From: a virus
IMG/VR virus record: IMGVR_UViG_3300033121_001702
DNA: 21,507 nucleotides
Direction: 5' to 3' (one strand)
Part shown: one piece after another, positions 1-19,957 of the stretch
How positions within the stretch are numbered: position 1 is the first letter of the stretch
Layout: each line of letters starts with the position of its first letter
Translations under genes and position numbers: made by a program
Notes under the pieces: generated by a model
What the model was told of the DNA's origin: nothing
Database searches by the model: none
Seen by the model: the letters and a program-made list of their open reading frames with translations, nothing else

Positions 1-261
1 TTCTTGTTTTGGGAGAACTGTAACCAGAGTTTTACGCTTATTGTCATAAATAACTCTGTACCAGTTATTTTCATAGCTGATTTCCCACACCGTAAGTCTT
101 AAAGACTGTCTTTCTACGAATATGGCTTTTTGGCTCTGAATTTGAGATATGAAATCTCTTAAAAGATGCCTATTTACGGACAATCCAAATCTTTCAGAAA
201 ACCGTTTTTTTACGTGCATCCTTTCAGATTGTAATTTAGTCGGAGCTTTCTTCTTTTTCAT
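1..261 (-). CDS. hypothetical protein, N-terminal 87 codons only; the gene runs off the window start
   Basis: ATG at 261-259 (minus), open frame to position 1 with no stop (MKKKKAPTKLQSERMHVKKRFSERFGL...); sits downstream of tRNA-Tyr on the same strand. Confidence 0.45.
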   Translation of the reverse strand, partial: MKKKKAPTKLQSERMHVKKRFSERFGLSVNRHLLRDFISQIQSQKAIFVERQSLRLTVWEISYENNWYRVIYDNKRKTLVTVLPKQE

Positions 262-277
262 AGTATATGTGTTTTTG

Positions 278-361
278 TGAGAGAGGAGGGATTCGAACCC
301 CCACACCCAAATGGGAACGATTTTACAGACCGTTGTAGCTCACCGTCTCTACAGCTCTCCC
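278..361 (-). tRNA. tRNA-Tyr (anticodon GUA), class II with a long variable arm; CCA not encoded
   Basis: Minus-strand read GGGAGAG-CT-GTAG-AGACGGTGAG-CTAC-A-ACGGT-CTGTAAA-ATCGT-(14-nt variable arm tCCCatttGGGtgt)-GGGGG-TTCGAAT-CCCTC-CTCTCTC-A. The 7-bp acceptor stem has one GU; anticodon loop CUGUAAA is identical to E. coli tRNA-Tyr; position 8 is C rather than U. Confidence 0.75.
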
Positions 362-374
362 AACTTATACCATC

Positions 375-400
375 AAAAAAGGCCCACAATACTGTGAGCC
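375..400 (-). terminator. rho-independent terminator (minus strand) between promoter P1 and tRNA-Tyr
   Basis: On the minus strand GGCUCACAg-uauu-GUGGGCC forms an 8-bp stem with one GU, followed by UUUUUU; on the plus strand the same stem has a C-A mismatch and only a weak T-run, so it is optimised for minus-strand transcripts. Confidence 0.5.
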
Positions 401-505
401 TTTTAATATATAAAATCACAGCTTATTTTAACCAACACAAAATGCTACTGGGGCTTCCAGTAGTTCGGGATAGGCTTTATAGACTGCGAGATTGTTCATA
501 ACTAT

Positions 506-534
506 AATATACAAAATTACTCAGAATTTGTCAA
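506..534 (-). promoter_or_regulatory. sigma70-type promoter P1: TTGACA-17nt-TATATT
   Basis: Minus-strand read TTGACAaattctgagtaattttgTATATTatag; -35 at 529-534, -10 at 506-511, spacer exactly 17 nt; near-identical to P2 at 4110-4138. Confidence 0.6.
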
Positions 535-743
535 GCGGGTTCGTAAGTTTTTTTGAAAATTTCTGGTTTACAGAAATACGGCTCTCCCTCAACTCCAATA
601 ATAAGGTAATCTCCAGGATTTCCGGTCATTACTCCTTCCAGAGTTTCAACCTGACAGGTTTCGTCGATTATAGCTGCTTGAATTACGACAGGTTTTTTTC
701 GATAATTTTGAAATTCAAGACCGTGCATATCTGTTTTATTCAT
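531..743 (-). CDS. hypothetical protein (70 aa)
   Basis: ORF track; same strand and packing as neighbours; overlaps the thioredoxin stop by 8 nt. Confidence 0.4.
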
Positions 744-1011
744 TTTGTGAATGCTTTTCTATTAATGCAGACAAAGCTGCTTTTGAGTGAAATCCAATTA
801 GCTTTTCTATAACTTCGTTGTTTTCATTTAAAAAAACTAACGTGGGGATAGACGTTATCAAGTGTATTTTAACTTCTGGAGTATCTTCTTCTACATCAAT
901 TTTTTCAACTTTAATTCGTCCGTCAAATTCGGTTTCCAATTCTTCTAAAATTGGAGTTTGTCTTTTACAGGGGCCGCACCAGTCGGCATAAAAATCTAAA
1001 ATTTTAATCAT
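736..1011 (-). CDS. thioredoxin
   Basis: Canonical WCGPC active site ([22 protein letters not shown]) and thioredoxin-fold length (91 aa). Confidence 0.85.
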
Positions 1012-1119
1012 TGTTTTCCTTCTTTTTATAAAGAGTAAGTGCAGTGTGTTCTTGGTGGGTCCCGGGGGATTAATAACAGCATCTGCACTTACTCTACAAA
1101 TTCTTATTCCAGCAATTAA

Positions 1120-2043
1120 TTAACTTCGTTGTTCGCTGGAAGTTGAAAAACCAACAGTACCAGATTCGGTAGCTGATTTTTTACGTGTTTCAATATTCTT
1201 TAGCTTTTCGATAGTATCTCGATAAGAAAGACCCAAACATTTTACTGCAACTACTAGTTCGGCTAAGGATGCAAAAGACAACCCTTCGCTTTCCTTAACC
1301 CACATTTCGATCTCCTGATTTGTTGAAGTGGTATTCAACTTCTTCAAAAGAAATTGTCGTCTGATTTCGGTTTTTGGCATATCAATGCGAAGAACTGTGT
1401 CAAAACGTCGTGGTCGTGCTGAAATTCGTTTATCTAACTCTTCTGGATAATTGGTGGTAGCTATGTTGATAACATGATTAATTTGTGACTCGCCGTCTAA
1501 TAATCGAAGAAAAGCACTTTCTTCGTATATTTTAACCAAATTATCTAAATCTTCGAACACACAAACAACAGGTTTTGTAGGCTCAATAAATCTAAATTTT
1601 GTAAGACCTTGTTCTAAAAATTCAGGATGTCCTGCTAAAAAACAAACTCCGCCTTGTGAGATAACGTGCAAAATAACTTGATGAACAATTGAAGTTTTAC
1701 CAGAACCCTGAGGTCCATAAAGTAAAAATCCTCGTTTGTGCACAAATTTATATGATTCAAAAGCAGTTGCGGTTGCCCAGAATTTGTTTGTTTCATTCAT
1801 TATTCGTTCGGATAAGTCATCTTTAAAAACAAACAATTCATCTGTATTTAAAGGCTGTGGAATATAAACTGGTTCACCATCATATTTGTCGATTCGATAA
1901 GAACCTGGACCTAAAGCTTTGTATGTATGCCCAACGGGTGAATAACCACCTAGCTTACTTACATATTGTGTGTAAAAATTTTTCTTAGTTGAACTTGTTG
2001 CTGCGACAGTTGGAGTAATATCAAAGGGATCAATTTGTTGCAT
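1120..2043 (-). CDS. AAA-family ATPase (classic AAA clade)
   Basis: Walker A LLYGPQGSGKTS, Walker B VVCVFEDLD, second region of homology ATTNYPEELDKRISARPRRFD (cf. ATNRPDxLDPALxRPGRFD). Confidence 0.8.
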   Translation of the reverse strand: MQQIDPFDITPTVAATSSTKKNFYTQYVSKLGGYSPVGHTYKALGPGSYRIDKYDGEPVYIPQPLNTDELFVFKDDLSERIMNETNKFWATATAFESYKFVHKRGFLLYGPQGSGKTSIVHQVILHVISQGGVCFLAGHPEFLEQGLTKFRFIEPTKPVVCVFEDLDNLVKIYEESAFLRLLDGESQINHVINIATTNYPEELDKRISARPRRFDTVLRIDMPKTEIRRQFLLKKLNTTSTNQEIEMWVKESEGLSFASLAELVVAVKCLGLSYRDTIEKLKNIETRKKSATESGTVGFSTSSEQRS

Positions 2044-2072
2044 TGTTTTTGTTTTTGTTTTTAGTTAGTTAA

Positions 2073-2282
2073 TTAACCACCACCGTAACAATATCCAGCA
2101 GTAGGTTCGTAATAAACATTTGGAGTTTTATCAAACTCATCTGGACCATTTATGTCATAGCCCAGTTTTTCTCTTACTAGTCTACGAGCTTCATCTTCAG
2201 TATATGCCATTGCAAAAGCAATACCAGAAGAGTAATCTTGTAGAACATCTTCCCAAACAAATAATTTTAGTTCTTCAGGCAT
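2073..2282 (-). CDS. hypothetical protein (69 aa)
   Basis: ORF track; gene-dense same-strand context. Confidence 0.4.
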   Translation of the reverse strand: MPEELKLFVWEDVLQDYSSGIAFAMAYTEDEARRLVREKLGYDINGPDEFDKTPNVYYEPTAGYCYGGG

Positions 2283-2392
2283 AATATTTCTTTCCTAAAT
2301 CATCACTGTGAAAAATCACTGTATATCCTAGAATGGTAACACATGCTAACATTCCTAAGAACCCAATGGTCATTATTATTTCAAATATCATT

Positions 2393-2599
2393 TTATTCTT
2401 CTTCTAATTCCTTTAAAGCTTCATCAAGGGCTTCTTCCAACTTATCATCATAAAAATGAAACATATCTTGAGGGCCTAGTCCTTTTAGATTAGATAATAA
2501 TTGACACAATCTAATATCGTGTTGATGCATGTATAGCTTAGTTAATTTGTCTATAAGACGTTGCTTGTCTTCTTTGTTACGATAGTTTATATATTCCAT
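2393..2599 (-). CDS. hypothetical protein (68 aa), acidic C-terminus
   Basis: ORF track; overlaps the thyX-like stop by 13 nt. Confidence 0.4.
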   Translation of the reverse strand: MEYINYRNKEDKQRLIDKLTKLYMHQHDIRLCQLLSNLKGLGPQDMFHFYDDKLEEALDEALKELEEE

Positions 2600-3558
2600 T
2601 TATTTCTCTCAATCATTTTCTGTACCACTTTCGGTGCTACATTGGCATTGATAACTTCAGATAGCATTAAACGTGCAACTTCCTGTATTTCAGGTTGCGC
2701 ATCTGGCGCTAAACGCTCACGTAATATATTCTCGAACGCACGAAGATTAAGAACTAACTTCATGTGAGTAATGAACGCAGTTCCAAGTATTCCACGAATA
2801 AATTCACGGGCGCGTTTATATTCTGCTTGAGTAATACGTTTTTCTTCAACCCAAGTTTTTAGCTCAGTAAGTTTATCTTCATAAGCCTTGTATTGTGCTT
2901 CTAACATACTTGCATACCAACCTTTTGGATTAACTCTAGAGATACAGTTATTCAATGTTGGTTCGCGTCGAACATTAAGAATTTTTTCTACATCTTCTGG
3001 CATTTCCAAAAACCGATTAGGAATTGTTCTATAACGGCCAGATAATTCATTCTGTGTGATATTATCACGACCCATTGGTGCAAAATTTGCAGTAATTTCT
3101 AAGCCACCAGCGGTAAACATCGTTAAATTATCAAGCAGTCTTTCATACCCACATGCTATGTAACTCCATTCTAATTCTTGCGGAGTCATTTCAGATTGTT
3201 TTTTTCCACTCGGAACATGTTTTAACGATTCTAAGTATTTACGCTGATATTGCTTATATAAGCGATTAACGCTATCTTCATCATAAACATTTCGAATATC
3301 CTGATACTGTTGTGTCATTCGATATTTATCAAGTTGACGTTCGATATAAATCGGTATCTCAAGATAAAATTCTAACCAAGTTGATTCCAACGGTGTTCCA
3401 TGACCTTGACCAACGACTATGTTTATAACTTTATCAATCTGTTCTTCTGTCTTTGTTTCAAATTTGTCTCTATCGTATGTGCTGGTCCACGCGCTTTCAC
3501 AAACCCGTTGGTCACCAGGTCCCCAGTGAGACAATAATTTAACTTTTATTTCGCTCAT
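2587..3558 (-). CDS. thyX: flavin-dependent thymidylate synthase ThyX-like protein, divergent
   Basis: Matches ThyX in three places: N-terminus (VKLLSHWGPGDQRVCESAWTS vs V-LL-h-p--------aaR-cy), GHGTPLESTWLEFYLEIPIYIERQ vs [24 protein letters not shown], and NELSGRY plus the C-terminal LNLRAFENILRERLAPDAQPEIQEVA block. The RHR of the RHRx7S motif reads KYR, and an insertion of about 85 aa separates it from NELSGRY. Confidence 0.6.
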   Translation of the reverse strand: MSEIKVKLLSHWGPGDQRVCESAWTSTYDRDKFETKTEEQIDKVINIVVGQGHGTPLESTWLEFYLEIPIYIERQLDKYRMTQQYQDIRNVYDEDSVNRLYKQYQRKYLESLKHVPSGKKQSEMTPQELEWSYIACGYERLLDNLTMFTAGGLEITANFAPMGRDNITQNELSGRYRTIPNRFLEMPEDVEKILNVRREPTLNNCISRVNPKGWYASMLEAQYKAYEDKLTELKTWVEEKRITQAEYKRAREFIRGILGTAFITHMKLVLNLRAFENILRERLAPDAQPEIQEVARLMLSEVINANVAPKVVQKMIERNKWNI

Positions 3559-4090
3559 TTTCTTCCATATCTTTTAATATTAATTTCATTTCATACAGAG
3601 TTGCATCATTTCGCAAAGCATTTGCTCTAAATGAAATAACTCTTACATTTCCTTTGATATATCCTTCAGAATTGTTAATTCTATCTAAAGTTGGTGATGT
3701 CATAATTGGACCATTTCCATTAAGATTTCGCTCTAATTTAATTCCAAGAATAGGACAATATTCAGGAATAGTTACATCTTCAATCGTTAGATTATATTCT
3801 AATCCTTTAGTTTTTGCACGATGACGTGCTTTAACTAGTAAACCCATTTCTGGATTGTCATGCCTCCATTTAGTTGCATAAGCTTTTCGTTCTTTAAATT
3901 TACGTTGTAAATAGTCTTTACTCCAAATACGTTTCTTTTCTTTTTGTTCTGGAGTTGAACGATACTTATTATGATATTCATTCAGACAATCTTTACATTG
4001 ATTGAGATAACCATCTTTGGATGCTGTTTTCTTTGAAAAACGTTCTATTGGTTTTTCTATCTGACATTTTTTACATATTTTAGTACTCAT
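3539..4090 (-). CDS. HNH homing endonuclease (free-standing)
   Basis: N-terminal CKKCqiekpierF...CKDC zinc motif typical of phage HNH endonucleases, and C-terminal LDRINNSEGYIKGNVRVISFRAN (HNH_3-like). SD GGAAAGGAG 8 nt before the ATG at 4090; overlaps the thyX-like start by 20 nt. Confidence 0.8.
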   Translation of the reverse strand: MSTKICKKCQIEKPIERFSKKTASKDGYLNQCKDCLNEYHNKYRSTPEQKEKKRIWSKDYLQRKFKERKAYATKWRHDNPEMGLLVKARHRAKTKGLEYNLTIEDVTIPEYCPILGIKLERNLNGNGPIMTSPTLDRINNSEGYIKGNVRVISFRANALRNDATLYEMKLILKDMEENERNKS

Positions 4091-4109
4091 AAGAAATCTC
4101 CTTTCCTAT

Positions 4110-4138
4110 AATATACTAAATTATGCAGAATTTGTCAA
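4110..4138 (-). promoter_or_regulatory. sigma70-type promoter P2 driving the HNH endonuclease gene
   Basis: Minus-strand read TTGACAaattctgcataatttagTATATTataggaaaggagatttcttATG; -35 at 4133-4138, -10 at 4110-4115, spacer 17 nt. Confidence 0.65.
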
Positions 4139-4161
4139 GTGTTTTTATAAAGAATATAGAT

Positions 4162-4190
4162 AAATAAAAAGAGCCGAAGCTCTTTCTTTA
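4162..4190. terminator. bidirectional rho-independent terminator
   Basis: AAGAGC-cgaa-GCTCTT hairpin flanked by A-run and T-run (aaaaAGAGCcgaaGCTCTttcttt); on the minus strand it follows the stop of the 4227..4529 gene. Confidence 0.5.
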
Positions 4191-4226
4191 TAACGTATCA
4201 GGAACAAAGTCCTCAGTTTATTTTTA

Positions 4227-4529
4227 CTAGTTTTCTTCTAAATATTTTTGCATATCCAAAAAGAAAACTTCTGCCCAAAGTTCGGTATGAAATTTTAACA
4301 TTTCTTCGTGACGCCTTCTTATTCGTAATTCAATCAAAGGCAGAAGGTCGTTTTGACCTTCTGATTCAGCATACGCATATAATCCAGCATCTGAGTCTTG
4401 TTTTTCGTACAAAACATTGTAACGTTCGAAATCTGGACCCAACTTTTCCAGAATTTCTGAATCCGTTAACGTTATACATTCATACGATTCGCCAAAAGGT
4501 TCCAGCTGATCCAAATCAAATTCACTCAT
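4227..4529 (-). CDS. hypothetical acidic protein (100 aa)
   Basis: ORF track; followed by the terminator at 4162-4190. Confidence 0.45.
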   Translation of the reverse strand: MSEFDLDQLEPFGESYECITLTDSEILEKLGPDFERYNVLYEKQDSDAGLYAYAESEGQNDLLPLIELRIRRRHEEMLKFHTELWAEVFFLDMQKYLEEN

Positions 4530-4580
4530 AACAATACCTTTGGTTGTTTACTTCTTATTCCACAAGAGAGTTAATTTTCA

Positions 4581-4784
4581 TTATTTAAATTTCTCCACGT
4601 CTTTTGCTATTTGATTTAGAATTACATCTAAATCTGTGTTTTGATAGAAAGGTGTTTCTACCGTTTCTTCGGGCTCTCTGTGCCATTCAGCATGAGCTTC
4701 GTATATGTTTTCGTGCGGCATAGTTATAACTAATACCATACCTTTTTGTGCGGTTAAAATTGTGTTAATTTGATTCATCGTCAT
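4581..4784 (-). CDS. hypothetical protein (67 aa)
   Basis: ORF track. Confidence 0.4.
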   Translation of the reverse strand: MTMNQINTILTAQKGMVLVITMPHENIYEAHAEWHREPEETVETPFYQNTDLDVILNQIAKDVEKFK

Positions 4785-4971
4785 ATTCTAATAAAATTTG
4801 TTCGGCTTCAAATTTGCCATATAAAGTTCTTAACTCTTCGATTAGAAAATTTAATCTTAATCTATCTTCATGGGATAAATTTGAAGGTATAGTTTCATTT
4901 TTTAATCCATTCCAATGATGTCTGAGCGCATGTCGAACTTCATTCCATTTTTCTGTAAAGTTGTTTGTCAT
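4765..4971 (-). CDS. hypothetical protein (68 aa)
   Basis: ORF track. Confidence 0.4.
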   Translation of the reverse strand: MTNNFTEKWNEVRHALRHHWNGLKNETIPSNLSHEDRLRLNFLIEELRTLYGKFEAEQILLEYDDESN

Positions 4972-5149
4972 TTTAAATCCTATAACTCATTTTAACATAT
5001 TCTTCTTCTGTAAATTTGAAATATCACAATCTTCGGTATGTGGAGCATTTTTGATTATTTCCCGAAGTTGAGCATTTTCTTCTTTGAGTTGTTTAACTTC
5101 TTCAGAATCGTCTACATCATCAAAATTCCATACATGTATGCTCATACTT

Positions 5150-5440
5150 TTATTGACCTTTTTTAACTCGAATAATTAACCAACTAAGTAAATTTATTTT
5201 ACCTTCACCAACTTGTTCTTGATAAGCAGCTTTTACAATATGGTATACTTTCGTAATCTCATCTTGCAATTCATCAGACATTTCTACTAAACTTTGAATA
5301 TGAAAATCCGCTTCAGCGACATCAAACTTTTCATCAGCAAACCACATACACCAAGCTCTATCATCCACAACACTGGTTACGGTCATTAGCGGTCCACCGC
5401 TTTTTAATTTTACAGTACTTCCAATTTTAATCATTTCCAA
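5150..5440 (-). CDS. hypothetical protein (96 aa), YodC/DUF2158-like small protein?
   Basis: ORF track; motif KLKSGGPLMTV, family assignment uncertain. Confidence 0.4.
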   Translation of the reverse strand: MEMIKIGSTVKLKSGGPLMTVTSVVDDRAWCMWFADEKFDVAEADFHIQSLVEMSDELQDEITKVYHIVKAAYQEQVGEGKINLLSWLIIRVKKGQ

Positions 5441-5660
5441 GTTTTCTCCCTAATTCACGCACTAACTTCATGATTTCTGCCAAACGCATATCGTTGGTTA
5501 ATTCATGATTATAATAAATATCTAACATATCTTCTTGAATCCCCTTGAATTCACTTAAGACACGAAGATGTTCTTCATTTGTGATTTGTTTCATTTTCAA
5601 TTCTTTCCAATATTTTGAGTTTTTCTTCATCGTTAAGCTTGGGCCATGCTGAAATCTCAT
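5427..5660 (-). CDS. hypothetical protein (77 aa)
   Basis: ORF track. Confidence 0.4.
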   Translation of the reverse strand: MRFQHGPSLTMKKNSKYWKELKMKQITNEEHLRVLSEFKGIQEDMLDIYYNHELTNDMRLAEIMKLVRELGRKLGND

Positions 5661-5740
5661 CGATAGTTCGTCTACACCCTAAACAGATATGATCATCGTC
5701 TAGGGTGCAGATTTTAATACATGGAGATTCAATCATTGAA

Positions 5741-6061
5741 TCACCAACTCACGTTTAATAAATAACGAGCTTCCGGAATCCATCCTTTAGCACACATGTC
5801 ATTTAAGATAATTTCAATCTCATCAATAGCATCGGATTTACCAGCGAAAACTTCTTCCATATCATAACCTTCATTATAACCATTTATATAATATGAATAA
5901 AGAGTATCGTTGTTAAATTCTCCGTGTAATAATACTTCAAAATTTTCTTCAAGTTCATATTTTTCAGTAATGAAACAGCCTAGGTCTGTATAATTAACTT
6001 CATACGCTTCGACTTCTTCAAATACATTTTCAAATTCAGAATAATCAATCTTTTTTCTCAT
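5741..6061 (-). CDS. hypothetical acidic protein (106 aa)
   Basis: The ORF-track entry 5741..6148 begins with GTG and overlaps the upstream gene by 104 nt; the internal ATG at 6061 has a strong SD (AAGGAGAGGG) and overlaps the upstream gene by only 17 nt. Confidence 0.5.
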   Translation of the reverse strand: MRKKIDYSEFENVFEEVEAYEVNYTDLGCFITEKYELEENFEVLLHGEFNNDTLYSYYINGYNEGYDMEEVFAGKSDAIDEIEIILNDMCAKGWIPEARYLLNVSW

Positions 6062-6428
6062 CCCTCTCCTTTTGACAGTCATCACAAACTGTTCTAACAT
6101 AATATTTGGTATAATTACGAGTTTTGCCCGGCTTTCCACAAATCTCACAAGTTTCCATAGATTCGGATTCGTATTTTGAAATGATATCTAATGATGCTCG
6201 TGTTTGTTCATTAGTATTTAAATAAAATCTTAATCCACCAAACTTTTCTTTGATTTGTACAACTTGCGCTGTTGGATCATTTGCTAGTACTTCAGCACAA
6301 CAACGATCAATTAAATCATACCAACCCTTTGCTACACTAATCCAATGTCCTTGGCAACGTGCGTAAATCTCGAATAAAGTTGGATATTTTTCTTGTAATG
6401 CTTTAAGCATGTTAAATTCTTCACTCAT
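6045..6428 (-). CDS. hypothetical zinc-ribbon protein
   Basis: C-terminal CEICGKPG...CDDC; start taken at ATG 6428 (SD GGAG 9 nt upstream) rather than the GTG at 6455. Confidence 0.45.
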   Translation of the reverse strand: MSEEFNMLKALQEKYPTLFEIYARCQGHWISVAKGWYDLIDRCCAEVLANDPTAQVVQIKEKFGGLRFYLNTNEQTRASLDIISKYESESMETCEICGKPGKTRNYTKYYVRTVCDDCQKERDEKKD

Positions 6429-6666
6429 CAAAAATCTCCAATTCACAGTTTTCACGAACTAGTTCTTCGAATAGTTCACCCAGTTTCCAAGTTTTTGTTT
6501 TTCTGTAGTATTTGAGTAAATTGCTTATTACCAATACTTCAGCACCTGTATCTTCTAAAATTTCAGATGCACTTTCGATTTTATTTCGGTTAGCATCTGA
6601 CGCTCTGTCGTATTTAACGACAACGTTCTCTTGTAATTTTTCACTAAATGCAATTAAGGTACTCAT
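6421..6666 (-). CDS. hypothetical protein (81 aa)
   Basis: ORF track. Confidence 0.4.
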   Translation of the reverse strand: MSTLIAFSEKLQENVVVKYDRASDANRNKIESASEILEDTGAEVLVISNLLKYYRKTKTWKLGELFEELVRENCELEIFDE

Positions 6667-6995
6667 TCTACTTCGACTTCTTGAATTATATAATCGCTGT
6701 CAATTGCATCCAATCGCAGCGCAGATTGTTCTTGTTGCTTATACCACTCTTCACCAGTTTGAATTAAACCGGTGCTATCTTCGTACCCTAAACACACGTA
6801 CCATAGTTTAGGATTTTTTGTTGATTGCTTAATGAAAACATCAATGATTTTATTATTAGGATCACTAACATGTTCACTTGTAGTTCCAATCAGTTTTACT
6901 GAAAGTTGTGCCTGGATTTTTGAGAAATCGTGAAATACCCAAATATCTCCTGTGCCCCAACAATTTTGTGCGTCTATGACAACGTACACTTTCAT
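6663..6995 (-). CDS. hypothetical protein (110 aa)
   Basis: ORF track; 4-nt overlap with the downstream gene. Confidence 0.45.
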   Translation of the reverse strand: MKVYVVIDAQNCWGTGDIWVFHDFSKIQAQLSVKLIGTTSEHVSDPNNKIIDVFIKQSTKNPKLWYVCLGYEDSTGLIQTGEEWYKQQEQSALRLDAIDSDYIIQEVEVE

Positions 6996-7270
6996 TATGG
7001 TATATCCTGCATTGTTATTGTTTCGCCTGTTGGCTCTAATCTGTATTCTCCAGCATCAATAAGAATAAAATTACGAATTGAATTACGGAAATTGTATTTT
7101 CTCATATTGGATAAATATCTTATTAAATCACCTTTATTTCGATACTTTACAATATCATGTCGTGATAACCATTGTTGTGTGTAAACGTTTATTAATTCTT
7201 CATATTTGACTTCAGCACAATAGTATCTATTCCAATTTTTTGAAGTTCCTGATAGTTTTGTATTTGCCAT
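6995..7270 (-). CDS. hypothetical basic protein
   Basis: The ORF-track entry 6995..7327 starts with TTG; the first ATG is at 7270 (MANTKLSG...). Confidence 0.4.
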   Translation of the reverse strand: MANTKLSGTSKNWNRYYCAEVKYEELINVYTQQWLSRHDIVKYRNKGDLIRYLSNMRKYNFRNSIRNFILIDAGEYRLEPTGETITMQDIP

Positions 7271-7446
7271 ATTAAAAAACCTTTTTGAATGCTTTATGGT
7301 TTGCAGAATTTTCATCTGGAATTGCAAATATTATATTACTTGATAGAGAATTTATAAAGTCTACCGCTTTTTTGTTTTTATTATTTATTTGTGTTATTTT
7401 CATATCTCGTGTGCGCGTTTAAATTTCTAATTTCTTTTTTAGAAAT

Positions 7447-7824
7447 TTAAGAATAATCGCCTGTCGCGTACCAACAGGGTTTTTTATATTTAAGACCAAT
7501 TTTTTTACAAAAATCTTCAATACGCTTATCCCATGCAGTTTCGTTTTTTATTTGATCAGCTGCCATTTTGTGTATATCTAATTTTTGATACATATCATAT
7601 TTATCATATGTCGCAGAAGGTATTCCAATAATATGATAAGTACCGTTATTACTATATTCTTGTAAATAACTATTTGTAACTATTTCTATATTAGATTTAT
7701 TTTTTACTTCTTCCCATACATCATCAATCTCTTCATCTAAATTAAATGCTTGCGCTGCTAATTCAATGACATTTTTTTCTGTATACATACCGTATACTAC
7801 GGCACAACTTGGCCAATTTCCCAT
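7447..7824 (-). CDS. hypothetical protein (125 aa)
   Basis: ORF track. Confidence 0.45.
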   Translation of the reverse strand: MGNWPSCAVVYGMYTEKNVIELAAQAFNLDEEIDDVWEEVKNKSNIEIVTNSYLQEYSNNGTYHIIGIPSATYDKYDMYQKLDIHKMAADQIKNETAWDKRIEDFCKKIGLKYKKPCWYATGDYS

Positions 7825-7826
7825 AT

Positions 7827-8102
7827 TTAATCCTCAGTTACTTTTTTTAAAATAGGATAATAACCTAATTCGAGTGAATTATAATTTAAATCGGATTGAA
7901 TAATAATTGGATTTTCCATAATAAAAGTACCAATCCAATGTGCTTCATCGACTTTTAGAATCTTATAATCCGTTATTCTATTATCTTTGATATTTGTTTT
8001 CTTTTTCATTTCAGACAAAACGAATTCACATGCATTTTGAAATTTTTCAAAATAGTGAATATCAGATTTATTGTCGAAAGGCATTGTTATATAAAATTCC
8101 AT
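7827..8102 (-). CDS. hypothetical protein
   Basis: ATG at 8102 overlaps the upstream TAA by 1 nt (TAATG), suggesting translational coupling; the ORF-track start at 8111 is also possible. Confidence 0.45.
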   Translation of the reverse strand: MEFYITMPFDNKSDIHYFEKFQNACEFVLSEMKKKTNIKDNRITDYKILKVDEAHWIGTFIMENPIIIQSDLNYNSLELGYYPILKKVTED

Positions 8103-15916: not shown

Positions 15917-15954
15917 GTTTAATATCTAAAACAGGGGAGTTTTACTCCCCTTAT

Positions 15955-16143
15955 TTATTGAAGTTTGTTACTTTTATCGGGCATCATTATAGCTCCGATA
16001 AACGAAAAAGGTCCAAATATTAGACCAATGAGTCCCCACTTGAGTGTATTTTGTCTACACAGTTTGGCAATCCTGATAACAGGTAACGCGCAAACTATCC
16101 AAAACACAATCAAGAAGAAGTTAGCAGATCCAAAAAGAATCAT
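15955..16143 (-). CDS. small membrane protein (62 aa)
   Basis: Two hydrophobic helices; ATG overlaps the upstream TGA as ATGA. Confidence 0.4.
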   Translation of the reverse strand: MILFGSANFFLIVFWIVCALPVIRIAKLCRQNTLKWGLIGLIFGPFSFIGAIMMPDKSNKLQ

Positions 16144-16277
16144 GATTCTTCCCAGGTTCTCCAGCCCATATATCCGCCGATGGCAAGTCCTAAAATTCCT
16201 AGAACAGGATGTCCTAGTATTAATAGAATCAATCCAGCGCCAAATATAATAACTGGAAGGTTAAATTGTGGTTTCAT
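16140..16277 (-). CDS. small membrane protein (45 aa, below the ORF-track cut-off)
   Basis: MKPQFNLPVIIFGAGLILLILGHPVLGILGLAIGGYMGWRTWEES; stop overlaps the next start as ATGA. Confidence 0.3.
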   Translation of the reverse strand: MKPQFNLPVIIFGAGLILLILGHPVLGILGLAIGGYMGWRTWEES

Positions 16278-16301
16278 ATTATTTCCTTGAAATTTATTGT
16301 G

Positions 16302-16342
16302 TGCCGCGAGAGGGATTCGAACCCTACACTGGAGGGATTTTA
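16302..16342 (-). tRNA. 3' portion of an interrupted tRNA gene (anticodon stem 3' strand, variable loop, T-arm, acceptor 3' strand)
   Basis: Minus-strand read (taaaa)-TCCCT-ccagtg-TAGGG-TTCGAAT-CCCTC-TCGCGGC-A; pairs with the 5' portion at 17115-17148 (see findings). Confidence 0.4.
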
Positions 16343-16377
16343 CGTACTACTATTAGATTTCCTAATCCTGTATTGAA

Positions 16378-17034
16378 CTATACAGTTGTAGTCTGGACTA
16401 TTTCTTCACCTTGAATATTCTTATTTTTAGGTGTTCCGTGCATAGTCTCTGAAGCTTCCTCTTTATTAAGAGGCTCGCCTGCTGGTTGTACAATATCACT
16501 TATTTTTATAACATTCGCACTCGTTGTTGCCAACCATGCTGTAGTTAAGTGATCTCTAAGTGTTTTCCAGCAATTCTCGGAAATACTACTGTTCTTTTTC
16601 AAGTACAGCGACCTGTGATGTTGTAAATAGCGATGTAAAGAATTATGAGCACTAGTTGCTAAAATCCATAAATTCTCAGATTGGTTGTTTTGTGGATTTT
16701 CATCTACATGGTGCACAACATGATATTTTGGAATAGCAATTCCCAGTGACTTAACATAAGAGCGACCTACGGTCATCCCAGTTTTATCTCTGGGAACTTT
16801 ATTATAATCTTCAACAACTTTATATCGACACCCAATGTGTGCAACTTGATTTTTTCTCCAAGCTTTCATTGGTTGTTTACATACCGCACACTCACTCAGA
16901 CAATAGTGGTTGCCATATTTTTTAGTCCGTTGACGATTATATTCTTTTGCACACTCTTTGCATCTTTTTCGTTCTACAACACCTACTTTTCCACAATCAA
17001 TACATTTCTTTTCGGATAAAGGTATTTTTGACAT
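16378..17034 (-). CDS. HNH endonuclease (free-standing, or encoded in an intron-like insertion)
   Basis: CIDCGKVG...CKEC zinc motif and HNH motif HHVDENPQNNQSENLWILATSAHNSLH; start at ATG 17034 with SD GGAG (the ORF-track start at 17100 lies upstream of the promoter -10 box). Confidence 0.75.
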   Translation of the reverse strand: MSKIPLSEKKCIDCGKVGVVERKRCKECAKEYNRQRTKKYGNHYCLSECAVCKQPMKAWRKNQVAHIGCRYKVVEDYNKVPRDKTGMTVGRSYVKSLGIAIPKYHVVHHVDENPQNNQSENLWILATSAHNSLHRYLQHHRSLYLKKNSSISENCWKTLRDHLTTAWLATTSANVIKISDIVQPAGEPLNKEEASETMHGTPKNKNIQGEEIVQTTTV

Positions 17035-17065
17035 TTTAGCTCCAATCTTGTTTTCGTATACATAC

Positions 17066-17094
17066 AATATACAAAATTGGAAGGTACTTGTCAA
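17066..17094 (-). promoter_or_regulatory. sigma70-type promoter P4 driving the second HNH gene
   Basis: Minus-strand read TTGACAagtaccttccaattttgTATATTgtatg; -35 at 17089-17094, -10 at 17066-17071, spacer 17. Confidence 0.6.
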
Positions 17095-17114
17095 GTTCAT
17101 TTGTGGAAATGTTT

Positions 17115-17148
17115 AGTCCCTTGTCTCTACCAGTTGGACTACCGCAGC
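17115..17148 (-). tRNA. 5' portion of an interrupted tRNA gene (acceptor 5' strand, D-arm, anticodon stem 5' strand)
   Basis: Minus-strand read GCTGCGG-TA-GTC-CAACTGGTAGA-GAC-A-AGGGA-CT; GCTGCGG pairs 7/7 (2 GU) with TCGCGGC at 16303-16309, and AGGGA pairs 5/5 with TCCCT at 16333-16337. Confidence 0.4.
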
Positions 17149-17216
17149 ATTCTATTGAGACAACAAGTTTGATAAAATCTTATACCACGTTTTGATTGAT
17201 TTGTCTCGCAAATCAA

Positions 17217-17615
17217 TTAATCAGAAAAAGGTATATGTTTGGTTTGTTGCTGTAATTCTTCGGAACGCGTTACCGAAACAATTGCAGCGTCTTGTATGTG
17301 AAACCATTGAGTCAAACCCTCCATGGCTATAGTTAAATTAAACTCTTTACAAGAATAAAGATCACATGAAAAATAACACAGCTCTGGCCACGTATGAATA
17401 GTCATATGACTTTCGGCCCAGATCGCAGTGCCTGTAACTCCCGATTGTTGGTCACCCACGCTCGGAAATCCGTATATTATCGGATTTTGCATTAACGTCA
17501 TTCCCAGTTGAGACGTTATTGTGCGCATCACATTGTCTATATAATTTGTATTGACAAGTAAGTGTACAAAGGCTGGGTCAACCTTACAGTCAAGAATTAA
17601 GTGCATGCCGTGCAA
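17217..17615 (-). CDS. speH: S-adenosylmethionine decarboxylase proenzyme, pyruvoyl-dependent (SpeH/class 1 AdoMetDC-like)
   Basis: HLILDCKVD...GFPSVGDQQSGVTGTAIWAESHMTIHTWPELCYFSCDLYSC aligns with Bacillus/archaeal SpeH ([31 protein letters not shown]), including the ES|H serine that is processed to pyruvoyl. Confidence 0.8.
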   Translation of the reverse strand: MHGMHLILDCKVDPAFVHLLVNTNYIDNVMRTITSQLGMTLMQNPIIYGFPSVGDQQSGVTGTAIWAESHMTIHTWPELCYFSCDLYSCKEFNLTIAMEGLTQWFHIQDAAIVSVTRSEELQQQTKHIPFSD

Positions 17616-17631
17616 CTTAACATAAATCTCC

Positions 17632-17877
17632 TTAAGTTAATAATATTTCATTAATTAATTCTGGTTCAGTAGAATCAATTACTTGAATTTTTTGAATAGC
17701 GCTGTAGTTTAAACCAAGAATTTGATGATAGTCGTTTCCTAATACTTCAGTCCATTGACGTTTTAGTAACGTATTATCAAGTTTTTGTCTTAATCTCCAC
17801 TTTGCTTCTTCTATTGTCATACTTTCCGGTTTTTCAGAAAGTTCGAGCTCGATGGTTAAATTTATCGTGGCTTTCAT
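17632..17877 (-). CDS. hypothetical protein (81 aa)
   Basis: ORF track; start uncertain (overlaps the upstream gene by 44 nt). Confidence 0.4.
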   Translation of the reverse strand: MKATINLTIELELSEKPESMTIEEAKWRLRQKLDNTLLKRQWTEVLGNDYHQILGLNYSAIQKIQVIDSTEPELINEILLT

Positions 17878-18199
17878 TTACAAACTCTGGTTTTATTAGA
17901 ACACCTTGTTTCAATCCTTCTTCAACTAATGCAGTTAGTGAAGGAACCAATACATTTAATTTTTCATTATCTTTTATTAATTTAATAAATGTAGTTAAAA
18001 TGTAATATTCGAATTCTGGCATATGAGATTCAACAAGTTTTTTAACTATAGCTCCATAAGGCATAGCTAAAAGTTCTTCTTCAGTGTATTGTTTTTTATC
18101 TGGATTTAAACATCCTATGATATCACCTGTCACATTTTTAATTGTAGTCGGTAGTTGTTCTGGACTTATTGATTTTTCCCAAGATGTTTTATGATTCAT
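17834..18199 (-). CDS. hypothetical protein (121 aa)
   Basis: ORF track. Confidence 0.45.
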   Translation of the reverse strand: MNHKTSWEKSISPEQLPTTIKNVTGDIIGCLNPDKKQYTEEELLAMPYGAIVKKLVESHMPEFEYYILTTFIKLIKDNEKLNVLVPSLTALVEEGLKQGVLIKPEFVNESHDKFNHRARTF

Positions 18200-18450
18200 T
18201 TTTTTTTGTGTGGAATTATACTATACACATGAACATACATAATACCAGATACCGACTGACTAAACGCATGTGGATCAAATTCCAACTCAGTTCTTACTAT
18301 AGTTAAATAGTAATCTGCATCATTTCCTTTGATCTTTAATTTTGTATTATCGGGTATCCAAGTGTCAATTGTCATTGCACGATAAACTGGTGGTAATACT
18401 TTATCCAGATCTTGAATTCTGGTATCATAAGGTTCTAAATAAAACCTCAT
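18196..18450 (-). CDS. hypothetical protein (85 aa)
   Basis: Start moved to ATG 18450, which overlaps the upstream TGA as ATGA; the ORF-track N-terminus (to 18579) overlaps the membrane ORF in another frame. Confidence 0.45.
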   Translation of the reverse strand: MRFYLEPYDTRIQDLDKVLPPVYRAMTIDTWIPDNTKLKIKGNDADYYLTIVRTELEFDPHAFSQSVSGIMYVHVYSIIPHKKK

Positions 18451-18635
18451 TTGAAAAATCCTGTAATAACAGGCCAAATATGTGAACGCCAATACCAACC
18501 AATAGCCATTGCACCAGGTATCATTATTAGTAGATTGACCATTAATGGCAACGAGAACAAGGTTGTAAGGTAGCCCCATGAATAGCTTGTAGCTAACATC
18601 ACGAGAGTTGAGATTATTTCATTCAATATCTTCAT
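18447..18635 (-). CDS. small membrane protein (62 aa, two TM helices)
   Basis: Hydrophobic sequence ISTLVMLATSYSWGYLTTLFSLPLMVNLLIMIPGAMAIGWYW. Confidence 0.4.
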   Translation of the reverse strand: MKILNEIISTLVMLATSYSWGYLTTLFSLPLMVNLLIMIPGAMAIGWYWRSHIWPVITGFFK

Positions 18636-18787
18636 TTGTTAATTTGTCCAATAGTTTATAAAACCATTTTTTGAATTGTTTACGTTCGGATTTATTTAGA
18701 TGTCGATCTTTTTTAAAGCACCCATCACCATTAAAATCCCAACGCATTCCTTTTGGTCTTCGTTTTGTTGATTTTTTCATATTGTTG

Positions 18788-18862
18788 TACCCCAAGAGGG
18801 ATTCGAACCCCCGACCTGCGGTTTAGAAAACCGATGCTCTAATTCCGCTGAGCTACTGGGGC
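18788..18862 (-). tRNA. tRNA-Arg (anticodon UCU)
   Basis: Minus-strand read GCCCCAG-TA-GCTC-AGCGGAATTA-GAGC-A-TCGGT-TTTCTAA-ACCGC-AGGTC-GGGGG-TTCGAAT-CCCTC-TTGGGGT-A; only a 27:43 mismatch; T4-like phages commonly carry tRNA-Arg(UCU). Confidence 0.8.
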
Positions 18863-19154
18863 AGTTGGTTATTTAATACGATAAAATTATTTCTTTTTTA
18901 TGCCCACATTTGTGACACATATGTTCTTCAATAATTTTACTTTTTATAGCTTTTACATTGATTGCAATAAAGCTATGTTTTTGACATTTTTGTTCTTTAA
19001 GGTACTGCTCTAAACTCTTGTACAAATCCGAAAATCTAGGCATTTTTATTTAATCCTCATCCAAATTTCCAAGTAATAAGCAAACACATCCGAATAAGAA
19101 ATGTCCGCTTAAAAAACACAGTATGGCTACAATATACCAAAGATTCATATTTTT

Positions 19155-19580
19155 TTACCACAAAAATCTAACGTTTGTATAAACGCTTAGAATGGGTTTG
19201 ATTGTTGGTTCTATTATTTGCTCAAATATGCCATAATCATTGGCCAGCCCCGCACCAACTTTACTTATCAAGTAAATTTTATCAGGGTTGGATTCGATTT
19301 CTTGAATAAGTTTATCTAATTCAACTTTAAATAACCACGCGTATTCCCATGGTTCATAACATGCGTCTTCATTATGTTTTGGTGTGCGTTTAGTGATAAA
19401 CCCATATGTATTTGGTAAATGTCGAAGTTTTGCCGCTCCACCGGTACCTTTATGCCACGTATTATCACCAAAAACAAAAATTTCGTTTGGATGTTCTAAA
19501 AGATATTCTTCAGTTATCTCGTTTTGTACTTCTAATTTATCTTTGAGTACAAGAATTTTATCAATATTTTCTGGATTCAT
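19155..19580 (-). CDS. conserved hypothetical protein (IFVFGDNtwhkGTGGAAKL motif)
   Basis: Gly-rich motif after a hydrophobic beta-strand suggests a Rossmann-like nucleotide or ligand-binding fold; family not confidently recognised; 4-nt overlap with the PTH2 gene. Confidence 0.45.
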   Translation of the reverse strand: MNPENIDKILVLKDKLEVQNEITEEYLLEHPNEIFVFGDNTWHKGTGGAAKLRHLPNTYGFITKRTPKHNEDACYEPWEYAWLFKVELDKLIQEIESNPDKIYLISKVGAGLANDYGIFEQIIEPTIKPILSVYTNVRFLW

Positions 19581-19957
19581 AATAATTTTAACTCTCCAGT
19601 TATTTCATCTATTACTTCGGACCAATCTGGTCCCAGTGCCATACATGTAATTGTTGGTACACCGTTAAATTCAGTATCCCCTGAATCTGTAATAATCTTG
19701 CAGGGTACGTGTGAAGCATAAGCTTCATGTGCAAGTGCTAAAAGTTCGCCTTCAGAATCTACTGAAACACAAACTTTTTTAAAACTGTAACCAGATTCCG
19801 GATCCATCCATAATCGCATGGGTTCCGAAATCTGATTGCGTCTTTGAGCATCTAAAATTAAACCAAGACATGCGTGTGCTCCTTGTGCCACCATTTTACC
19901 TTTGCGCATATTTAGATCTTTGCGCATTACGATGACTTGTTTTATATCTCTTTTCAT
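19577..19957 (-). CDS. pth2: peptidyl-tRNA hydrolase, PTH2 family
   Basis: KQVIVMRKDLNMRKGKMVAQGAHACLGL matches PTH2 [26 protein letters not shown]; the C-terminal GVPTITCMALGPDWSEVIDEITGELKLL matches [26 protein letters not shown]. Confidence 0.8.
   Translation of the reverse strand: MKRDIKQVIVMRKDLNMRKGKMVAQGAHACLGLILDAQRRNQISEPMRLWMDPESGYSFKKVCVSVDSEGELLALAHEAYASHVPCKIITDSGDTEFNGVPTITCMALGPDWSEVIDEITGELKLL

Follow-up and report, generated by a model that had tools for sequence, protein, structure and literature searches.

The stretch of DNA analysed here, the IMG/VR virus record IMGVR_UViG_3300033121_001702 (hereafter the window), is a complete metagenomic contig (P0001) of 21,507 nucleotides (nt) with 36% G+C, in which the minus strand carries all credible genes and tRNAs. 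Four promoter-like sites on this strand, P1 to P4, had been described in an earlier note as a family of near-identical early phage promoters, two of them joined to HNH endonuclease genes. The endonuclease gene behind P2 (HNH#1) is free-standing and lies directly ahead of thyX, and the gene behind P4 (HNH#2) is located in a group I intron that splits a tRNA gene with the anticodon UAA. Our analysis indicates that P1 to P4 probably are working sigma70-type promoters that form two groups, of which P1 and P3 would be ordinary promoters, and P2 and P4 would be dedicated to the HNH genes and equipped with hairpins that occlude the start of translation.

The four promoter-like sites and their conservation

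All four sites reported in the earlier note were recovered exactly; the +1 is predicted from its position relative to the -10 box:

534..506, minus strand: P1, TTGACA, 17-nt spacer, TATATT; predicted +1 at 499
4138..4110, minus strand: P2, TTGACA, 17-nt spacer, TATATT; predicted +1 at 4103
10558..10530, minus strand: P3, TTGACA, 17-nt spacer, TATATT; predicted +1 at 10523
17094..17066, minus strand: P4, TTGACA, 17-nt spacer, TATATT; predicted +1 at 17059

At each site the -35 box matches the sigma70 consensus at six of six positions and the -10 box at five of six, and the spacer is 17 bp throughout. A general sigma70 consensus scan of the window returned P1 to P4 as its only 11/12 matches (ranks 1-4); overall, the scan shows no enrichment (71 sites, 75 expected), so that only the top class of sites stands out. 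With at most one mismatch allowed, TTGACA-N17-TATATT occurs 4 times compared to 0.48 expected, a count reached in 1 of 100 shuffles, and is thus commoner than chance would produce in this AT-rich window. The 33-nt degenerate consensus CTTGACAARTN7WWTTTWKTATATTRTA also has 4 matches in the window (0.01 expected), a figure that inflates the significance because this consensus was built from P1 to P4 themselves. Six IMG/VR loci (L004-L009) matching the same pattern proved to be unrelated, with no proteins common with the window. P1 and P2 are identical at 31 of 34 positions (91%), spacer included, slightly above the earlier estimate of about 85%; the spacers of P3 and P4 differ, and 21.5 kb contain only one near-identical promoter pair. 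All four sites share the coding strand, lie between genes or in the intron, and avoid credible coding sequence; the one overlap is with the stop codon of the open reading frame (ORF) 531..743, located inside the -35 box of P1.

For comparison, several relatives of the window are available. L013/L014 and L015, from one NCBI metagenome assembly, are syntenic with window positions 8623..261 and 19957..16300 and encode proteins 41-78% identical to their window homologues; L012 encodes a ThyX 58% identical, and L018 a vWA protein 92% identical, to those of the window. Exact-protein look-ups mostly returned near-identical short Logan contigs (L001-L003, L010, L011), which are useless as a conservation test, and two look-ups gave no match; the IMG/VR related-locus search with ThyX, AdoMet decarboxylase or HNH#2 found no loci. 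The 29-nt core of P1, with its 17-nt spacing, is identical at all 29 positions at L013:12785, amid diverged flanks and with different neighbours on either side (two extra ORFs upstream, a 52-amino acid (aa) ORF downstream), and this P1 homologue is the sole 11/12 site in 20 kb of L013. At P3, L018 keeps both hexamers and the 17-nt spacing, with three spacer bases changed and a 6-nt indel just upstream. P2 is identical in the near-identical contigs L001-L003, the only ones available for its comparison; the counterparts of P4 are described with its intron below.

Being non-random, placed on the coding strand in intergenic or intronic positions and conserved in relatives, P1 to P4 are very probably promoters, and of the sigma70 type. 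One could argue instead that they are chance matches to the consensus in AT-rich DNA, or sequences conserved for RNA structure only, and not promoters; the low G+C content of the window and the unenriched overall scan are in keeping with this. Chance is contradicted by the number of 11/12 sites (four, 0.48 expected) and by their placement on the coding strand, clear of credible coding sequence but for one stop codon, and the statistics, the strand bias and the conservation taken together leave this explanation very improbable. Its RNA-based variant is considered below with the hairpins.

HNH genes, the split tRNA and predicted promoter-spanning hairpins

The following elements surround P2 and P4:

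4166..4187, minus strand: intrinsic terminator-like hairpin AGAAAGAGCTTCGGCTCTTTTT, then ATTTAT, just upstream of P2
4079..4120, minus strand: predicted hairpin spanning P2
3539..4090, minus strand: HNH#1, free-standing His-Me/EndoVII-type endonuclease gene (phrog_3322 'endonuclease', 1.2e-33; phrog_1035 'endonuclease VII', 5.8e-30)
2587..3558, minus strand: thyX, flavin-dependent thymidylate synthase (PF02511, 1.7e-22)
17115..17148, minus strand: 5' exon of tRNA(UAA), ending ...GGGACU (ARAGORN, introns allowed)
16343..17114, minus strand: group I intron of 772 nt between U33 and U34 (Rfam RF00028 and ARAGORN)
17028..17094, minus strand: predicted hairpin spanning P4
16378..17034, minus strand: HNH#2, intron-encoded HNH endonuclease of 218 aa (PF13392 HNH_3, 26.5 bits, cut-off 24.8)
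16301..16342, minus strand: 3' exon of tRNA(UAA), beginning UAAAAUCCCU (ARAGORN)
minus strand, joined exons: predicted exon junction of the intron-less tRNA, ...AAGGGACTTAAAATCCCT...

The position of P2 and P4 directly upstream of HNH genes is borne out: the -10 box of P2 ends 19 nt before the HNH#1 ATG at 4090, and that of P4 ends 31 nt before the HNH#2 ATG at 17034, which is preceded by the ribosome-binding site (RBS) TTGGAG. A mechanical HNH#2 start at 17100 overlaps P4 and is unlikely to be used.

HNH#1 has no Pfam match; its identity to phage proteins annotated as HNH endonucleases is about 33%, and the last 20 nt of the gene are shared with the beginning of thyX. In L012 and L013, neither an HNH gene nor a promoter precedes thyX. 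There, thyX follows the preceding ORF after a 3-nt gap (L013) or overlaps it by 20 nt (L012), and the ThyX homologues align from the first residue. The terminator, P2 and HNH#1 are therefore absent together from thyX of both relatives, and HNH#1 may have been inserted, along with the terminator and P2, directly ahead of thyX. An IMG/VR search with HNH#1 yielded one GC-rich relative (35% identity) with no promoter-like sequence upstream.

Both HNH genes had been viewed in the earlier note as self-contained mobile promoter-ORF cassettes. Each indeed has a promoter of its own, but HNH#2 and P4 lie inside a group I intron, so the mobile unit at this site would be the intron; the annotation is hereby corrected, in that one supposed HNH cassette turns out to be a group I intron within a tRNA gene, which standard callers of tRNAs and genes overlook. 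From the intron flanks, ARAGORN rebuilds a cloverleaf with the anticodon UAA (17148..16301) and a 772-nt insert in the anticodon loop. RF00028 matches 16638..16373 over the full model (1-253) at 51.1 bits (E 1.6e-10), a marginal score in the window given the gathering score of 50; homologues score 58-88 bits, and 8 of the 15 homologous loci tested are above the gathering score. The splice junctions, placed by eye, are GGGACU/AAAC and UACG/UAAAAU, so that the 5' exon ends in U and the intron in G. An internal guide GGUC (about 16613..16610, just before ribozyme P2/P3), likewise identified by eye, is complementary to exon GACU over 4 bp, and the same pair is present in L015, L016 and L017. In the rebuilt tRNA the variable loop is short (about 6 nt), the T stem contains a U-C mismatch and the D stem has 3 bp, whereas the homologous intron-bearing tRNAs (in L015, at L016:9894-10755 and at L017:2903-3730) are class II tRNA-Leu with a long variable arm. 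Placing the L015 splice sites so that the exon ends in U and the intron in G would yield a Leu-type body with the anticodon GAA. Two other, low-threshold ARAGORN calls, a tRNA-Leu(CAA) at 1316..1385 (plus strand) and a 'tRNA-Asn' at 19181..19844 (plus strand), are antisense to genes that contain them and are taken to be false positives.

HNH#2 has the invariant HH...N...H residues, and its ORF runs through the whole ribozyme core; the last 85 or so codons overlap the core, and this C-terminal region is the best-conserved part of the protein. At the other end of the intron, the -35 box of P4 starts at intron position 21, 20 nt past the 5' splice site. The HNH#2 protein has 32 database matches including itself, the others being 41-72% identical, and a metagenome scan added 80 further loci; a tblastn search of 50,697 GenBank phage records gave no match to the family. 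Among 40 near-full-length homologues, 38 are located in a tRNA with an anticodon-loop insert of 724-972 nt (1402 nt in one), nearly always tRNA-Leu(UAA), and the family occupies the same tRNA site in many unrelated contigs. Counterparts of P4 are TTGACA-17-TATATT in L015, TTGACT-17-TATATT in L016 and TTGAAT-17-TATAAT in L017 and L026, with P4-like sites of 10-11/12 in L021, L025, L028, L042 and L065. In the homologous introns these sites lie 14-28 nt after the 5' splice site, those of L015, L016, L017/L026, L021, L025 and L028 at 18-28 nt, and the spacing remains 17 nt in L015, L016, L017, L021, L025, L028 and L065 while the spacer sequence varies. Among the 36 intron homologues that were scored, a site of 10/12 or more is present in 11, and 9 outperform dinucleotide shuffles (p<=0.05); the ATG positions of the distant homologues are rough estimates. 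These comparisons support the view that a P4-type promoter travels with the HNH gene in homologous elements. HNH#1 and HNH#2 are unrelated proteins, and what the two genes appear to share is a regulatory design, not a common cassette.

Nearly all intron homologues (L021-L067) as well as the window (17074-17082, minus strand) contain the motif GTCT(T/A)CCA just upstream of a TATAAT-like box. Its sequence is reverse-complementary to the tRNA D-arm (TGGTAGAC) and, judged by eye, seems to co-vary with it, as in L057 (exon TGGCATACGC, motif GCGTTTGCCA). The motif could be one side of a long-range exon-intron pairing, a strand opposing the Shine-Dalgarno sequence, or a protein-binding site; in the window, opposition to the Shine-Dalgarno sequence accounts for its bases better than pairing with the D-arm does.

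The feature that separates P2 and P4 from P1 and P3 is a predicted hairpin that would hide the RBS and/or the AUG on read-through RNA. When RNA was folded from the -35 box to just past the start codon, with z-scores from shuffles, the P4 region reached -20.3 kcal/mol (z -5.24) and the P2 region -14.3 kcal/mol (z -3.43), and in either case 0 of 200 shuffles were as stable. In the P4 hairpin, the -35 UUGACA pairs with the UGUCAA of AUG-UCA-A, and the spacer UUCCAAUUUUGU (17082..17071) pairs with ACAAGAUUGGAG (17051..17040), which includes the Shine-Dalgarno GGAG. In the P2 hairpin, the 5' strand (4120..4102) comprises the spacer end, the -10 box and the start-site region, the 3' strand (4096..4079) includes the HNH#1 AUG, and the Shine-Dalgarno sequence is in the loop. 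RNAs that begin at the predicted +1 are unstructured for P4 (0.0 kcal/mol) and fold at only -0.5 kcal/mol for P2. The control regions at P1 (z -0.04), P3 (z +0.43) and the P1 homologue of L013 (z +1.05) have no significant hairpin. The arrangement recurs, with other sequences, in eight homologous introns (z -1.8 to -5.0; promoter-started RNAs at about 0 kcal/mol), and RNAalifold retains both pairing modules across five P4-type homologues. Conservation for RNA structure only, introduced above, finds its best argument here, as the -35 box and spacer of P4 lie in a stable hairpin that could alone explain their conservation. Against it, P1 and P3 lack significant RNA structure, yet their hexamers are conserved in relatives, and the homologues of P4 keep the 17-nt spacing while the spacer sequence varies.

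Under the promoter reading, the promoter DNA of P2 and P4 would double as the 5' half of a hairpin whose 3' half holds the Shine-Dalgarno sequence and/or the start codon. RNA reading through from upstream would carry both halves, so that the endonuclease would remain untranslated; on read-through RNA of the intron, ribosomes would be kept off the ribozyme core overlapped by the ORF, and the pre-tRNA could splice. RNA begun at P2 or P4 would lack the 5' half and serve as open mRNA, and that begun at P4 would also lack the 5' exon and could not splice. From the sites with their statistics and conservation, the intron with its split tRNA, and the predicted hairpins with their controls, we infer promoter activity, start sites, the translational switch, splicing and homing; the four predicted start sites and two predicted RNA switches would be cheap to test.

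Several points weigh against this scheme. The recognition of P1 to P4 by host sigma70 is assumed from the consensus, and their start sites, strength and timing are all predicted. A strong sigma70-like site is found in only about one third of the scored intron homologues, the distant ones being without it. The -35 of the P4 family also pairs with codons 1-3, and its conservation could in part reflect an RNA constraint, not promoter function, while RNAalifold shows almost no compensatory change (1 pair; covariation term +1.72). Lacking the long variable arm, the window tRNA(UAA) is a doubtful functional tRNA-Leu and may be a decayed or repurposed copy. No intron-less allele of the split tRNA was found among the relatives, L015 having the intron too. 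Finally, the ORFs upstream of thyX in L012 and L013 are themselves non-homologous to those of the window, which leaves the boundaries of the presumed HNH#1 insertion undefined and the comparison weak; the joint absence of promoter and HNH gene from relatives, for which the earlier note had proposed to look, is seen at these loci with that limit.

Units behind P1 and P3, promoter timing and mosaicism

The following features accompany P1 and P3:

428..499, minus strand: 23-codon mini-ORF encoding MNNLAVYKAYPELLEAPVAFCVG, followed by a stop codon, with its ATG at the predicted +1 of P1 (499); read from the sequence
375..400, minus strand: terminator-like hairpin GGCTCACAGTATTGTGGGCC, then TTTTTT, between P1 and tRNA-Tyr; conserved in L013
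277..361, minus strand: tRNA-Tyr(GUA), downstream of P1
10680..10703, minus strand: terminator-like hairpin after the vWA gene, upstream of P3
9948..9873, minus strand: tRNA-Glu(UUC), downstream of P3
9782..9711, minus strand: tRNA-Met(CAU), downstream of P3

P1 and P3 appear to be ordinary transcription-unit promoters ahead of clusters of small RNAs and tRNAs. The earlier statement that both drive non-coding, tRNA-containing regions applies to P3; P1 precedes a conserved 23-codon mini-ORF and a terminator-like hairpin, and only then tRNA-Tyr. With the ATG at the predicted +1, the mRNA of this mini-ORF would be leaderless. Its counterpart in L013 (about 12995-13066) encodes MLQIAVYAVYPELLEAPVAFRVG, again followed by a stop codon, with five synonymous third-position changes in codons 5-23, and these mostly synonymous differences suggest that the mini-ORF is coding. 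It overlaps a hairpin, CTACTGGAAGCCCCAGTAG, that is perfectly conserved between the window and L013. The 135-nt RNA from the +1 of P1 to position 365 folds at -40.6 kcal/mol (z -4.2); an Rfam match to STnc40 downstream of P1 (32 bits, gathering score 45, E 0.037) is taken to be a chance one.

P3 precedes about 1.5 kb without a convincing ORF that holds tRNAs and several tRNA-like structures. In the hairpin upstream of it, a G-U pair of the stem is replaced by A-U in L018, so that pairing is preserved. A structured non-coding RNA was noticed at 10150-10425 (minus strand), with a weak tRNA match at 10412..10349 (20.8 bits) and an ARAGORN 'tRNA-Tyr' with a 104-nt insert at 10338..10154 (minus strand); the loop of about 30 nt in its stem CAGCGCAA/TTGCGCTG is the sole patch that varies between the window and L018. 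In a tRNA-like element at 9452-9585 (minus strand), GUCGGAA and UUUCGAC form an acceptor stem of 7 bp with ACCA after it, a D-arm and a good T-arm (GAGGG-UUCGCGC-CCCUC) are present, and about 75 nt of structured RNA take the place of the anticodon loop (-44.4 kcal/mol, z -1.8); neither ARAGORN nor Rfam calls it. A compact element at 9310-9368 (minus strand), GGGAACA...UGUUCCC then AGCCA (-21.8 kcal/mol, z -3.5), looks like a tRNA without a D-arm or a mini-helix.

A second motif recurs in the intergenic regions of the window:

364-372, 1103-1111, 4554-4562, 9027-9035, 10654-10662, 11450-11458 and 17179-17187, minus strand: TGG(T/A/C)ATAAG, intergenic
17179..17187, minus strand: the copy TGGTATAAG, after a hairpin and 31 nt upstream of the 5' exon of the split tRNA

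With at most one mismatch, TGG(T/A)ATAAG has 14 matches (5.1 expected), 12 of them on the minus strand. The TGG(T/A/C)ATAAG copies usually follow a terminator-like hairpin closely, with a gene or tRNA beginning 3-45 nt further on; TGG(T/A)ATAAG is conserved in L013 ahead of tRNA-Tyr and in L015 (L015:3833) ahead of the split tRNA. The motif resembles an extended -10 box but has G where the invariant last T is expected. It is a candidate for a second promoter class or a processing signal and, at the split tRNA, for the source of spliceable pre-tRNA.

This second motif bears on promoter timing, as it could mean that the phage has more than one promoter class. The label 'early, host sigma70-dependent', given to P1 to P4 in the earlier note, is unproven, being drawn from the consensus. 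P1 to P4 could instead be real promoters used by a phage-modified polymerase or with a phage sigma factor, or active throughout infection, with the HNH genes expressed late as in T4. In T4 the endonuclease-specific promoters are MotA- or gp55-dependent and belong to the middle or late classes, none being early, and I-TevI must be translated with a delay if splicing is to be efficient (PMC2988022); an early timing of P2 and P4 hence cannot be assumed. Against a non-early class stand the 11/12 match of P1 to P4 to the primary-sigma consensus at the optimal 17-nt spacing and the finding of no sigma factor or RNA polymerase gene in the window, which is only part of a genome. We consider this alternative rather unlikely.

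The repetition of strong promoters also recalls the PeSL elements of large phages, and P1 to P4 might be recombination modules of this kind, whose main evolutionary role would be to offer short patches of homology by which ORF cassettes are shuffled among related phages, a role compatible with promoter function. The identity of P1 and P2 extends through the spacer, beyond what promoter function should require; the core of P1 is unchanged in L013, yet its neighbours differ on both sides; and terminator-like hairpins stand ahead of P2 and P3, as in the PeSL layout (PMC2839356, PMC4122927). Such a role nonetheless appears unlikely, because there is one near-identical pair only in the window, P3 and P4 have differing spacers, no stem-loop adjoins P1 or P4, 20 kb of L013 contain a single such site, and no recombinant junction or mini-circle was seen. 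A metagenome scan for the P1/P2 core gave 0 matches and is uninformative, as the scanned collection did not include the window itself. The exact conservation of the P1 core across diverged phages nevertheless suggests that the promoters may also be exchange points in genome mosaicism. Mosaic replacement within the population is indicated at other places: L001:1-737 (compared to window 5017 onward) and L002 (compared to window 2406-2980) are near-identical to the window except for abrupt divergence at ORF boundaries, and the ThyX of L002 (343 aa) is only 80% identical to that of the window.

Returning to the promoter reading, its extension to the intron family as a whole can be offered only tentatively. 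P4 and its intron may belong to a widespread, essentially uncharacterised family of mobile group I introns of tRNA-Leu(UAA), spread over phage as well as bacterial contigs from numerous habitats, in which an HNH gene overlaps the core and a conserved internal promoter sits in a hairpin that occludes the RBS and AUG. Each intron would then yield two mutually exclusive RNAs, a spliceable, untranslated pre-tRNA and a translated, unspliceable HNH mRNA, and the same promoter type would have been taken up by, or from, the P1 and P3 units and the free-standing HNH gene at P2, possibly as a PeSL-like module.

As to the phage itself, the window encodes thioredoxin, an AAA ATPase, ThyX, a pyrimidine-dimer glycosylase, vWA and TerC proteins, a vault-like protein, AdoMet decarboxylase, PTH2 and a class II aminoacyl-tRNA synthetase, along with several tRNAs. 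A megablast comparison with 50,697 GenBank phage records found no match at the DNA level, and tblastn with the vault-like protein matched only three metagenome records of 'huge phages' (about 41% identity). The vWA/TerC/vault-like block (10732-14910, minus strand) has a G+C content of 0.38-0.45, compared to 0.27-0.36 elsewhere in the window, and the best cellular homologues of the vWA protein (about 50% identity) are from filamentous cyanobacteria (Aphanizomenon, Dolichospermum, Argonema, Microcoleus), a hint of a cyanobacterial host or gene donor. A tRNA-Phe (14941..14866, minus strand) lies immediately upstream of the vault-like gene, whose mechanical ORF start (TTG 14910) falls inside this tRNA; the true start is probably ATG 14832.

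Comparison with known systems

The PeSLs of phages RB49, phi1, PST and nt-1 (PMC2839356, PMC4122927) share with P1 to P4 the repeated strong sigma70-like intergenic promoters in a large phage, the terminator stem-loop ahead of some of them (P2 and P3), the flanking small ORFs of unknown function and, possibly, the indels between relatives that border the motif. Unlike the PeSLs, the sites of the window include one near-identical pair only, have no conserved GGGG...CCCC stem and lack the stem-loop at two of the four sites.

The intron resembles bacterial tRNA group I introns, including those in cyanobacterial and plastid tRNA-Leu(UAA), in its insertion into the anticodon loop and in the anticodon UAA, and it resembles the rare endonuclease-bearing tRNA introns in exceeding 500 nt and carrying an endonuclease gene (PMC13011429). 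HNH-family endonuclease genes have been reported, rarely, in tRNA-Leu(UAA) introns of Bacteroidota, and the same work mentions no internal promoter or hairpin in tRNA introns (PMC13011429). Insertion in tRNA-Leu is usually at 34/35, whereas the exon-U/intron-G rule places it at 33/34 in the window and its closest homologues; more distant introns of the HNH#2 family appear to use 34/35. The window copy differs from the introns of PMC13011429 also in being on a phage contig and in a tRNA without a long variable arm. A homing endonuclease gene in a phage tRNA region is known from T4 SegB (PMC2330249), which however is a free-standing GIY-YIG enzyme encoded between tRNA genes, while HNH#2 is an HNH enzyme in a tRNA intron. 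Each component of the proposed system thus has a known precedent; the intron family has many members, has been little described and is without a record among deposited phage genomes.

The closest parallel is provided by T4 I-TevI, I-TevII, I-TevIII and segB and by Aeh1 mobE, in which an endonuclease-specific promoter is combined with a hairpin that sequesters the RBS only on read-through transcripts, an arrangement that protects splicing from ribosomes (PMC2988022). As in the T4 genes, the promoters of HNH#1 and HNH#2 stand directly ahead of the ORF, within the intron or in non-coding DNA upstream, and are enclosed by the longer transcription unit of the interrupted or adjacent gene; the predicted internal start site falls between the hairpin halves, so that the translation start would be hidden on read-through transcripts only; the endonuclease gene is oriented as the host genes; and the neighbouring or target gene encodes a thymidylate synthase (td in T4, thyX in the window). 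An I-TevI-like autorepression operator at P4 is unsupported: identity to the exon junction, counted by eye, is 12/17 in the window and 9/17 in L015, an inconsistent similarity, and the shared ACTTGACAA is also present at P1 to P3. The window further departs from T4 in that P2 and P4 are near-consensus -35/-10 promoters and not of the MotA-box or TATAAATA type, that the interrupted gene is a tRNA and not protein-coding, and that the HNH#2 ORF spans the whole ribozyme core instead of a peripheral loop. With these differences, the T4 solution of an endonuclease promoter paired with an occluding hairpin would recur in an unrelated lineage of uncultured phages and in a large metagenomic intron family, here built on a -35/-10 promoter.

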